From the IMG/VR virus record IMGVR_UViG_2724679140_000014: a stretch of 13,036 nt of DNA. The stretch is one strand, 5' to 3'. Position 1 is the first letter of the stretch. Every line of letters begins with the position of its first letter. This stretch comes from a virus. Its lineage: Duplodnaviria; Heunggongvirae; Uroviricota; Caudoviricetes. The notes under the pieces were generated by a model. The model was not told the DNA's origin. It did no database searches and saw nothing but the letters and a program-made list of their open reading frames with translations. The translations under genes and the position numbers were made by a program. Positions 8,770 to 10,568 of the stretch are shown here, one piece after another.

Positions 8770-9279
8770 ATGGATCGGGAGCTTAAAAACCTGAAACTTA
8801 ATATCAATCAACTAGCAGAACTGGCGGGAGTTTGCCGCCAGACAGTAGCGAAAAGGCTAAAGGACATTCAGCCAGCCGGAGGGCATGAAAAATTAAAGCT
8901 GTACCGACTGACGGATATAATCAGCGCATTCATGAATATACCCGACCCCGCATCACTCGAAGACATGGATCCACAAAGCCGTAAAGCCTGGTACCAGTCT
9001 GAGCGTGAGCGCCTTAAGTTCGAACAGGAAACGGCTGAACTTATCCCCGCCGTGGATGTGCACAGGGAGTTGGTTATTTTTGGGAAAATCTTAAGCGAGG
9101 AACTGGCAAAACTCCCCGACATTCTGGCGCGCGATGCAGGCATCAATCAGAACGCAGTAAACCGCGTCAGGCAGATTATTGATGACCTGTGCAGGCAAAT
9201 TACTACCAGAGTGATACAGGCTAACGACTGGCGCGACAGCACGCCGCAGGTAGTGCAGGAGATTCACAAGGGGGAATAA
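8770..9279 (+). CDS. Nu1-like winged-HTH protein (169 aa): candidate small-terminase-like / packaging-redirection protein
   Basis: Start chosen at the internal ATG with a GGAGG RBS. The N-terminus (LNINQLAELAGVCRQTVAKRLKDIQPAGG..KLKLYRLTDIISAF) follows the lambda Nu1 N-terminal DNA-binding pattern (VNKKQLADIFGASIRTIQNWQEQGMPVLRGGGKG..LYDSAAVIKWY). The gene lies directly upstream of a cos-like region. Confidence 0.5.
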   Translation: MDRELKNLKLNINQLAELAGVCRQTVAKRLKDIQPAGGHEKLKLYRLTDIISAFMNIPDPASLEDMDPQSRKAWYQSERERLKFEQETAELIPAVDVHRELVIFGKILSEELAKLPDILARDAGINQNAVNRVRQIIDDLCRQITTRVIQANDWRDSTPQVVQEIHKGE

Positions 9280-9290
9280 TTCGCGGTACC
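9247..9290 (+). repeat. Direct repeat copy 1 (about 42 bp, overlaps the 3' end of the 8770-9279 gene)
   Basis: CAGGTAGTGCAGGAGATTCACAAGGGGGAATAATTCGCGGTACC recurs with a few mismatches at 9622-9663. Confidence 0.6.
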
Positions 9291-9621
9291 GGAAAACATC
9301 CACCAGCAGGGAACGACAAAAAACAAAAGCGCACCGCTAAGGATGCGCCTTGATTGAGGTTCAATGAGTAAGACATGCACGCACATTGTGGCGCACCTCG
9401 TTCATTCTGGCAATGTATCAGGCTGGTGCGTGCGGTAAGTCTCCAGATTTGCGCAATGGTTCCGCCTGTGATGTTAAGGTTTGTTAAGTTGTTTTGCGCA
9501 GAGATGGACGGAATAAACATCGATGTAAGCCCCGTAATTACTGGCCTTGCCACGTAAAAACCGCGAACAATGATCAGGTTAATCATGCTTAGAAATGCCA
9601 GGGGTATTTGCGCAAAAATGA

Positions 9622-9663
9622 CAGGTAGTGCAGGAGATTCACCAGGTGGAGGATTCGCAACCA
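9622..9663 (+). repeat. Direct repeat copy 2
   Basis: CAGGTAGTGCAGGAGATTCACCAGGTGGAGGATTCGCAACC; the two copies bracket about 330 bp. Confidence 0.6.
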
Positions 9664-9762
9664 TTCTCTTTATTTCTCGTCATCACGCTGACCTGTATTC
9701 AGCTGGTTGGTCTGTGGCACATCCCCGGATATTTAATTACACCTTACGGTAGCTATCTCCGG

Positions 9763-9960
9763 CGGGTCCTTCCCGGAACCTTAAGCGCCGGGGGTACGGA
9801 TACGTGCAATTCTTAACTGTTTATGAAAATTTTTCGGGAAAAGTCAGATCCGTTCTTCTTCTCTGTAACTCATTGTTTAATCGTAAAATCATCAAAAAAA
9901 GAAAGGATCTGGCAGTGGTCATTTTGGGACAAAAATGACGTTATCAGATCCTTTCTCAGT
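9763..9960 (+). other. Lambda-type cos region (cosQ/cosB-like, cosN position diverged), + orientation
   Basis: TTTATGAAAATTTTTCGGG..CCGTTCTTCTTCTCTGTAACTCATTGTTTAATCGTAAAAT..AAAGAAAGGATCTG..CAGATCCTTTCTCAGTTTTGTTC aligns with the lambda left end (..CTATTTATGAAAATTTTCCGG..CGTTTCCGTTCTTCTTCGTCATAACTTAATGTTTTTATTTAAAATACC..AAAGAAAGGAAACGACAG..CTGTCGTTTCCTTTCTCTGTTTTTGTCC) as I recall it. The expected cosN position reads GGGGGTACGGATACG rather than GGGCGGCGACCT. Confidence 0.6.
9894..9955 (-). terminator. Hairpin with U-tract on the minus strand, immediately 3' of the nu1-like gene
   Basis: Perfect 11-bp inverted repeat GAAAGGATCTG (9901-9911) / CAGATCCTTTC (9945-9955) with a 33-nt loop, followed on the minus strand by T7 (A-run 9894-9900 on +). 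The same dyad is the homologue of the lambda cos-region inverted repeat. Confidence 0.45.
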
Positions 9961-9965
9961 TTTGT

Positions 9966-10568
9966 TCAATAATTGCGCTGTTGTCGCTCACCTTTCTGTT
10001 GCCGTAATTTCTCCGGCACGTTTCCGGTTGTTTCCATCAGGTAGTCTTTCAGAATGCGGGGCAGATTATCGGCAGTTTTGGCGCACGCATTACAGGCCCG
10101 TGCTGTTTCCTTCCTCAGCCCATCGAGCATTGCCGGAGTCATCCCGGGGAACTGCCTTTGCATTGTGAGCGGTAAACTATCCATGATCGAAGAAATCTGA
10201 CTCGCCAGTCCACGAAGCGCATAGAGCACGAACTCAGTATCTGTAACCTCCCCCGTCTCTCTGGCGTTCTTCAGTTCCTGCCCGTCAGCCTGTGCTTTGG
10301 TGAGACGGTAGCGTTCGTACTCTGTTGTGCCTGGCTGTAAATCTGATTCACCAGCAGCACGTAAATCATCAAGCTCCCTGCGGAGTTTTTCGTTTTCGAT
10401 GTCCTTCTCCCTTTGTGCATACCATTCGATCACCTGTGCAGAGTCGAAAGTCACTTCCACGCCTTTTCCGCCACCAGATGCATGAGGAAGGCCCAGCGTC
10501 TGCCAGCGTTCAATTGTGCGCGGATCAACGCCGAAAATCTCCGCCAGTCTCTTTTTGTTAACATTCAT
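9966..10568 (-). CDS. nu1: Terminase small subunit, lambda Nu1 family (200 aa), with a divergent C-terminus
   Basis: [103 protein letters not shown].. is collinear with lambda Nu1 ([103 protein letters not shown]..); canonical cos lies directly upstream. The last 50 or so residues differ from lambda. Confidence 0.85.

Follow-up and report, generated by a model that had tools for sequence, protein, structure and literature searches.

Among the systems closest to the locus studied here is EcCICFT073, a phage-inducible chromosomal island (PICI) of Escherichia coli, for which the packaging protein Rpp and both cos sites have been characterized earlier (PMC6739421, PMC9026076). Rpp is a short protein (139–154 aa) that carries neither a C-terminal region resembling that of a small terminase subunit (TerS) nor a region for binding the large subunit (TerL) (PMC9026076), and its authors proposed that it evolved from TerS (PMC6739421). 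Deletion of the second EcCICFT073 cos site raised lambda-mediated transfer (PMC6092414). Homologues of terS were noted in Gram-negative PICIs in 2018 (PMC6092414); they have been described as packaging-redirection components (PMC6092414, PMC10085698) and form a core component of SatelliteFinder (PMC10085698). Here we analyzed a DNA stretch of 13,036 nt (virus record IMGVR_UViG_2724679140_000014, in the following called the window), in which two genes had been proposed, from the letters alone, to encode Nu1-like DNA-binding proteins that might act as a packaging-redirection pair in the manner of Rpp. We found that they encode full-length TerS homologues of two phage families, one of the DUF1441 family and one of the Nu1 family (the latter gene is called nu1 below), within a module of four cos sites. 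The literature that we searched contains no description of island-specific C-terminal subfamilies of Nu1 or DUF1441 proteins or of their occupation of the Rpp slot, of both TerS families in one island, of an exchange of cos and DNA-binding domain with prophages, or of nested inverted cos pairs with inversions.

Two TerS families in one phage satellite

Both open reading frames (ORFs) were found as described in the original prediction, facing each other with products of 169 aa on the plus strand and 200 aa on the minus strand. The 169-aa product is labeled ‘DUF1441 family protein’ in RefSeq and matches PF07278 (E=8.8e-36, profile positions 1–145 of 147) as well as phrog_141, ‘terminase small subunit’ (E=2.5e-55); profile searches hence place it in a TerS family and not in an unrelated one. 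Its part behind the DNA-binding pattern had been taken for unrelated to TerS, a view that does not hold: residues 1–152 align at 64% identity with the 163-aa TerS of PhiR40_1 and mEp460-like lambdoid phages, and a cross-match to the Nu1 PHROG covers residues 18–156. The TerS proteins of VT1-Sakai and Stx2 phages are ∼49% identical to it. In phages, DUF1441 TerS genes are located directly upstream of a GpA-type large terminase, as is the case for P0008, which precedes GpA_ATPase/GpA_nuclease. An acidic tail (...EAGADDEEELQQEE) terminates the phage proteins but is missing from the window protein (...QANDWRDSTPQVVQEIHKGE), and the C-terminal half of the latter clusters with an island type rather than with the phage type. 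An AlphaFold model based on an alignment of 48 sequences (mean pLDDT 83.7) displays a winged helix-turn-helix (HTH) at residues 1–55, a long helix at 68–89, three further helices and a disordered tail at 156–169. Sequence searches of the PDB with the protein and with its profile yielded no meaningful match. A comparison of the DUF1441 and Nu1 alignments with hhalign was collinear, with a low probability of 1.4% and E=0.036, so that the distant homology between both families rests mainly on the PHROG cross-matches. A longer reading frame starting at 8731 finds no support among the homologues, all of which begin with MD(R/H)ELKNL. A 29-nt direct repeat (9247–9275 and 9622–9650, 93% identical) copies the 3′ end of the gene 375 bp downstream; it looks like a scar of gene replacement, and island L003, which does not carry the DUF1441 gene, retains only the distal copy.

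The 200-aa product, ‘terminase small subunit’ in RefSeq, matches PF07471 (E=9.6e-68, profile positions 1–162 of 164) and phrog_57 (E=2.8e-63), and its N-terminal winged HTH matches the solved DNA-binding domains of lambda and phage 21 (6hn7_B, E=2e-38; 1j9i, E=6e-23; 7lwr, E=5e-21). Overall identities are 71% to PhiR5_1 Nu1, 62.5% to phage 21 gp1 and 53% to lambda Nu1. The predicted homology to lambda Nu1 in the DNA-binding and oligomerization regions was borne out, with identities to lambda Nu1 and PhiR5_1 Nu1, respectively, of 60 and 80% for residues 1–55 and of 74 and 82% for residues 56–105; values drop to 46 and 63% for residues 106–140 and to 24 and 51% for residues 141–181. The C-terminal ∼40 aa of lambda Nu1 bind the N-terminus of TerL, and this segment is a known region of TerL specificity. 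The last ∼50 residues do differ from lambda as had been noticed, but they are related to PhiR5_1, lambda and phage 21 themselves are only 32% identical over the 141–181 segment, and the motif LPxxLxxYLxE is retained. An unusual feature is a basic C-terminal extension of 19 aa.

The element that carries both genes is, judged by its sequence, a PICI-type phage satellite. The window is 100% identical to E. coli IGC_RcoliRes_1.1 and spans most of a 14.4-kb island, which is located at tRNA-Pro between yejM and yejO in E. coli and bears arm-type repeats at both ends. Like a PICI, it has int, alpA and a primase-replicase with an adjacent origin, is small and integrated site-specifically, and lacks structural and lysis genes. 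ORF, profile and RefSeq annotation revealed no capsid, tail or lysis genes among the island genes, and terL is absent from the whole island, whereas phage Nu1 homologues do have a gpA-type terL directly downstream. The order of the backbone genes is collinear with the experimentally studied EcCICFT073.

In order to compare the two proteins with Rpp, we used RppA and RppC query sequences from the supplement of the original paper for tblastn searches against the window and islands L001, L002 and L003, together with a Pfam scan. These searches yielded only a 30-aa match between the HTH and nu1 (E=4e-4), and the DUF1441 protein did not match 6hlk (phmmer). We therefore rejected membership of either protein in the Rpp family. 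Both are, moreover, full-length TerS homologues, and the sites cos1 and cos3 carry cosB of phage type. Thus, of the proposed packaging-redirection context, the PICI-type satellite and the location of both genes in its packaging module stand, as does the position of the DUF1441 gene in the slot of rppA (see below), while homology to Rpp beyond the HTH is not supported.

cos sites and nested inverted segments

By alignment with the cos sites of lambda, phage 21, PhiR5_1 and PhiR40_1 we located four cos sites in the window (Table 1). cos1 aligns to the lambda and PhiR40_1 sites, including the block GGCTAGTTTTTGCATTTT..CATCATCTTT, and is 71% identical to PhiR40_1 cos over 92% of the query. cos2 abuts the 3′ end of nu1 and has no terS behind it; its nearest phage cos is that of SerU-LTIIb (74%), followed by Gifsy-1. 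The DUF1441 gene had been described as lying directly upstream of a diverged plus-strand cos, which is correct for cos2, but the gene also lies downstream of a cos of its own, cos1. cos3 was assigned by alignment to the annotated cos of phage 21 with conserved R3, R2 and R1 boxes; in keeping with the 21-type cosB of this site, the nu1 product has exactly the recognition helix of phage 21 gp1 (DPRTIERWQ). By these alignments, each protein has a winged HTH matched to the R boxes of the cos that precedes its gene. The four sites represent three types of cosB. A cosQ–cosN pattern gave 4 matches versus 0.01 expected by chance, a figure that is only illustrative as the pattern was built from the four sites themselves.

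The resulting order is perC – cos1(+) – DUF1441(+) – cos2(+) – nu1(−) – cos3(−) – cos4(−) – p94, so that two inverted cos pairs are nested within positions 8545–11648, cos1/cos4 as the outer and cos2/cos3 as the inner pair. The corresponding segment of EcCICFT073 reads cos1(+) – rppA – cos2(−) – p94 homologue (L028 17529–18655, strain CFT073): the two published cos sites are an inverted pair flanking rppA, with the same layout as the outer pair of the window, and EcCICFT073 cos2 has the position and orientation of cos4. By gene order, the DUF1441 gene is thus placed in the rppA slot of EcCICFT073. A further EcCICFT073-like island, L015, carries an island-type Nu1 gene instead of rppA.

Related islands show the cos-bounded segments in both orientations. 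Strain C5 (L019, same att site) has the entire cos1–cos4 segment turned round, which brings nu1 into the orientation of int, and carries cargo genes for PAAR, S-type pyocin and immunity proteins (L019 6534–8960) in place of the DUF1441 gene. In L021 the inner segment alone is inverted and a perfect ∼80-bp inverted cos repeat flanks nu1, and A36 combines the outer inversion with a flipped, frameshifted nu1. Among the loci examined, nu1 is co-oriented with int in five (L019, L021, L022, L023 and L025) and anti-oriented in four (the window, L024, L003 and L020). Because the segments occur in both orientations in sister islands, the convergent layout most plausibly reflects their inversion during evolution and not a functional pairing of the two genes. 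Both orientations together with the L021 repeat suggest that inverted cos sites recombine or are possibly cut by terminase and rejoined. The two genes do not make a pair: islands occur that carry either one alone, only DUF1441 being present in L002 and only nu1 in L003 (strain CFIAFB20180511) and L019, while other islands have both; in several, moreover, nu1 is deleted or frameshifted. The cassettes are therefore independent and the genes separable. At its right end the CFIAFB20180511 island carries a pair of Panacea-domain genes as cargo (L003 11287–12182).

Island-specific subfamilies, exchange with prophages and the island backbone

Database searches divide each TerS family into a phage type and an island type. 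The Nu1 island clade comprises proteins of 193–200 aa that are 72–95% identical to the window protein and share a conserved C-terminal tail (...ACNAC...), compared with 181–183 aa for phage Nu1 proteins. One member, P0154, resides in an EcCICFT073-like PICI adjoining phoQ with the order int, alpA, AAA_25 replicase, SSB, PerC, gpE-like capsid, gpD-like decoration, Nu1-like gene and p94. In the DUF1441 family, the island type has a C-domain and tail unlike those of phages, for example P0006 from a 7-kb int–alpA–primase island, and the phage type is exemplified by P0008 with an acidic tail and an adjoining TerL; the N-terminal 94 aa of P0006 and P0008 are identical. At the DNA level, island L009 (8776–9290) and the lambdoid prophage L012 (5776–6290) are ∼99% identical over ∼560 bp, a block that comprises cosQ, cosN and cosB and extends to codon 94 of terS with unrelated flanks on both sides. 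The crossover lies within the region encoding the invariant RKAWYQSERERLKFEQET. Such a block indicates that cos and the DNA-binding half move between phages and islands, and the sequences argue that the C-terminal half stays island-specific.

Both genes are under purifying selection, their C-terminal halves included: the ratio of non-synonymous to synonymous substitution rates (dN/dS) of nu1 versus strain C5 is 0.12 overall and 0.07 for the C-terminal half, and that of the DUF1441 gene versus L009 is 0.15. The island-type clades recur in PICIs with other integrases and att sites (L009, L015 and L024). In L024 the packaging module is near-identical (DUF1441 97%, nu1 100%) and the integrase is only 23% identical (L024 1–1158 versus window 1–1242); the module thus moves from one backbone and att site to another.

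We then determined the frequency of these sequences in 5426 complete E. coli genomes. The nu1 allele of the window is present at full length in 24 genomes and the DUF1441 allele in 19; a 2.6-kb region spanning both genes is covered to at least 80% in 16, with both genes annotated in about 11 of them. The families as a whole are far more widespread, as Nu1-family DNA was found in 4540 genomes (84%) and DUF1441-family DNA, Stx phages included, in 1489 (27%), so potential helpers are common.

The packaging module is framed by two conserved genes. A perC-family gene, the last backbone gene ahead of the module, is found at the same position in every sister island and in EcCICFT073. A GC-rich hairpin with a T run behind it (GAAGCCGGAACACTCCGGCTTTTTTT, 8513–8540) separates this gene from the cosQ of cos1 and may stop transcription from the perC side before cos; a similar hairpin precedes the cos of L009. 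On the other side, p94 comes after the slot of TerS or Rpp in L009, L015, EcCICFT073 and every sister island and is essentially absent among phage genomes. The 94-aa product of p94 had no Pfam, NCBIfam, PADLOC or PDB match, and NCBIfam and PADLOC scans likewise gave no match for the DUF1441 protein, the Nu1-like protein or p96. In the minimal island L009 the start of p94 lies 3 bp past the DUF1441 stop codon, where phages place terL. Beyond the module a second PerC-family gene (12728–13036, plus strand), only 42% identical to the first (8151–8438, plus strand), is found near a divergent 96-aa ORF without a family match (12329–12619, minus strand). The second perC raised the idea of two tandem islands, which was rejected because only one att pair exists and all variants share the right-hand part. 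Further backbone genes encode DUF4222, SSB and ProQ/FinO proteins in addition to PerC. Iterons and inverted repeats (GGGACAAYAT...TTTTGGGAC) at 6671–6808, immediately 3′ of the primase gene, probably constitute the replication origin of the island.

Table 1. Positions of island features in the 13,036-nt window
Feature	Position	Strand	Description
int	1–1242		island backbone
alpA-type regulator	1771–1977		island backbone
DUF927 primase	4431–6563		island backbone
iterons	6671–6808		3′ of the DUF927 primase gene
perC-family regulator gene	8151–8438	+	PF06069, E=4e-36; last backbone gene ahead of the packaging module
cos1, outer left	8545–8712	+	cosQ ACGGGTCCT; predicted 12-nt cosN GGGCGACGGATG at 8578–8589; cosB of DUF1441-phage type; followed by the DUF1441 gene
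DUF1441-family TerS homologue, island type (169 aa)	8770–9279	+	GGAGG ribosome-binding site
terminator-like hairpin	9326–9351	-	between the convergent genes; 10-bp stem, then T run; consensus match only
cos2, inner	9762–9965	+	intact cosQ; diverged cosN (GGGTACGGATAC, 1-nt gap); lambda-like cosB layout with CAGATCC-type R boxes
nu1, Nu1-family TerS homologue, island type (200 aa)	9966–10568	-	PF07471
cos3, inner, cognate to nu1	10569–10789	-	cosQ; predicted cosN GGGCGGCAGACG at 10746–10757; I2; R3/I1/R2/R1 boxes of phage 21 type
cos4, outer right	11491–11648	-	inverted paralogue of cos1; predicted cosN GGGCGATGGACG at 11606–11617; no terS behind; just upstream of p94
p94	11942–12226	+	phrog_1561, E=1e-48; conserved, apparently island-specific gene always flanking the packaging module

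Packaging models and comparison with known systems

We see about an even chance that the two cos–terS units of the window are alternative satellite cassettes and draw the large terminase of a helper phage to island DNA. The first putative cassette combines cos1 with the island-type DUF1441 TerS and is assigned to the lineage of mEp460, PhiR40_1 and Stx phages; the second combines cos3 with the island-type Nu1 TerS, which pairs a DNA-binding domain and cosB of phage 21 type with a PhiR5_1-like C-domain. As far as alignments tell, both proteins keep the central oligomerization region and a C-domain homologous to the TerL-binding region of lambda Nu1. A helper of matching lineage would induce the island, whereupon the island TerS would bind the island cosB and recruit the gpA-type TerL of the helper via its C-domain; this TerL would then nick the island cosN and package island concatemers, and as a consequence be diverted from the helper. 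A second cassette and two extra cos sites with other kinds of cosB would let the island use a broader range of helpers.

Several observations weigh against this model. The predicted cosN cores GGGCGACGGATG and GGGCGGCAGACG differ from the lambda core GGGCGGCGACCT at 4–5 of 12 positions. The core of cos1 does not occur in IMG/VR or in any complete phage, and that of cos3 was found only in six island-like IMG/VR contigs of 11–14 kb and in no complete phage. No helper could therefore be named from the cosN search, and a helper TerL would not necessarily cleave these sites. In the source genome no other TerS homologue was detectable at the DNA level. C-termini are altered throughout both island clades, the Nu1 type being extended by 12–19 aa and the DUF1441 type having lost its acidic tail, and this could mean changed or lost TerL binding. 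As cos and the TerS DNA-binding half of L009 are ∼99% identical to a prophage, the island TerS adds no new DNA specificity there, and its island-specific C-domain must do something else. A promoter scan for nu1 on the minus strand gave no convincing candidate (5 sites versus 6.1 expected by chance). Finally, nu1 is frameshifted in A36, and the same internal 506-bp deletion (window 10046–10551), which spares 17 nt of the 5′ end and 80 nt of the 3′ end, is shared by STEC367 and no fewer than 7 further complete genomes; this suggests that nu1 is dispensable when the DUF1441 gene is present.

The altered C-termini and the unchanged DNA specificity of L009 favor a rival model, in which the proteins act in a manner more like Rpp and which we regard as possible but doubtful. 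The island TerS would then not itself recruit TerL but assemble with helper TerS of its own family into mixed dimers or oligomers via the interface of central helix and DNA-binding domain, thereby poisoning recognition of the helper cos, while the C-terminus of the helper TerS brings TerL to the island cos. The central regions (RKAWYQSERERLKFEQET in DUF1441 and IENEKLR... in Nu1) are near-invariant between island and phage proteins, making co-assembly plausible; the C-termini are island-specific in both families, the DUF1441 gene sits in the rppA slot, as the Nu1 gene of L015 does, and given the proposed descent of Rpp from TerS (PMC6739421) the window proteins look like intermediates. However, no homology to RppA, RppB or RppC was found beyond the HTH, the proteins are full length with the LPxxLxxYL motif kept in the Nu1 type, and the island cosB is of phage type, even identical between L009 and L012, whereas Rpp uses a cosB unrelated to that of its helper. 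A bolder extension, which we consider rather unlikely, is that the island Nu1 and DUF1441 proteins are evolutionary intermediates from phage TerS to Rpp, with a C-domain that makes them dominant partners or poisons of the helper TerS, and that the nested inverted cos sites constitute an invertible packaging module. If so, the helper-type DNA-binding and oligomerization halves would be kept and refreshed by recombination of cos and DNA-binding domain with prophages, the recombination-prone and possibly terminase-cut module would allow one island to switch or combine helper specificities, and the two cos sites in PICIs such as EcCICFT073 would be explained.

Inversion could also act by itself as a reversible switch that changes which cassette faces late transcription from the perC side, or the direction of packaging, and hence helper specificity; placing the extra cos in inverted and not direct orientation would avoid aberrant termination at a second cos. 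The occurrence of nu1 in both orientations, the outer and inner inversions that can be inferred, and the L021 repeat around nu1 agree with this idea, as do the inverted cos sites of EcCICFT073 and the increased lambda-mediated transfer upon deletion of cos2 (PMC6092414). But the island has no invertase gene, heterogeneity within a strain is not evidenced, the repeats of the window are only ∼75% identical, and rare homologous recombination over evolutionary time explains the pattern equally, so that we judge a switch to be improbable. We give even less credence to the possibility that one or both genes are non-functional leftovers of the island having recombined with lambdoid prophages at cos. 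The nu1 deletion allele in at least 8 genomes, the A36 frameshift, the absence of terS behind cos2 and cos4, the duplicated DUF1441 3′ end at 9622–9650 and the identical block of cos and 5′ terS in island and prophage could all be read as debris, yet both frames are intact with dN/dS values of 0.12–0.15, and the island clades are conserved over islands with different integrases and att sites.

The findings touch questions left open in the 2019 Rpp paper, namely the origin of Rpp, the reason for the existence of different Rpps and the presence of two cos sites in some PICIs. Full-length TerS homologues of two phage families can take the slot that Rpp occupies in E. coli PICIs; they have satellite-specific C-termini, and their cos and DNA-binding half are swapped with prophages. 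The ‘two cos sites’ of EcCICFT073 correspond to the inverted pair bounding this slot. This leads to testable hypotheses on how interference works, which helpers can be used and how packaging piracy evolved. PICIs are being engineered as vehicles for DNA delivery, and the cos-bounded segment is able to carry cargo such as the PAAR, S-type pyocin and immunity genes of strain C5.

Compared with Rpp, the window proteins belong to the same type of element and the same slot, downstream of the plus-strand island cos and upstream of an inverted cos and p94, and share an N-terminal winged HTH of TerS type as well as the presumed role of steering the helper terminase to island DNA. They differ in being full-length TerS homologues of 169 and 200 aa, whereas Rpp has no TerS-like C-domain, and in the phage-type cosB of cos1 and cos3; an obligate partnership with the helper TerS, demonstrated for Rpp, would be a conjecture for the window proteins. 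With phage TerS (lambda Nu1 and phage 21 gp1; the DUF1441 proteins of mEp460, PhiR40_1, VT1-Sakai and Stx2 phages) they share full-length homology (53–71% and 49–64% identity, respectively), domain order and a cognate upstream cos with R boxes and IHF-like spacing, but no terL follows the genes, the C-termini are island-specific and the cosN cores are unseen in phages. The TerS of the staphylococcal islands SaPI1 and SaPIbov1 and the PmCI172-type terS of PICIs from Gram-negative bacteria provide a precedent for a satellite TerS that pairs with the helper TerL, so that satellite DNA is packaged preferentially; those systems are however of the pac (headful) type, and SaPIs add Ppi, which blocks the phage TerS, whereas the window is of cos type, combines two TerS families in one island and has no recognized Ppi. 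SaPIbov5 and EcCICFT073 represent cos-type satellites that bear the cos of the helper. Like the window, they have cosQ/cosN-type sites and more than a single cos in the island and, as presumed for the window, package concatemers into helper capsids; the window differs from both in its four cos sites with three types of cosB, arranged as nested inverted pairs, two of the sites being coupled to a terS of their own.

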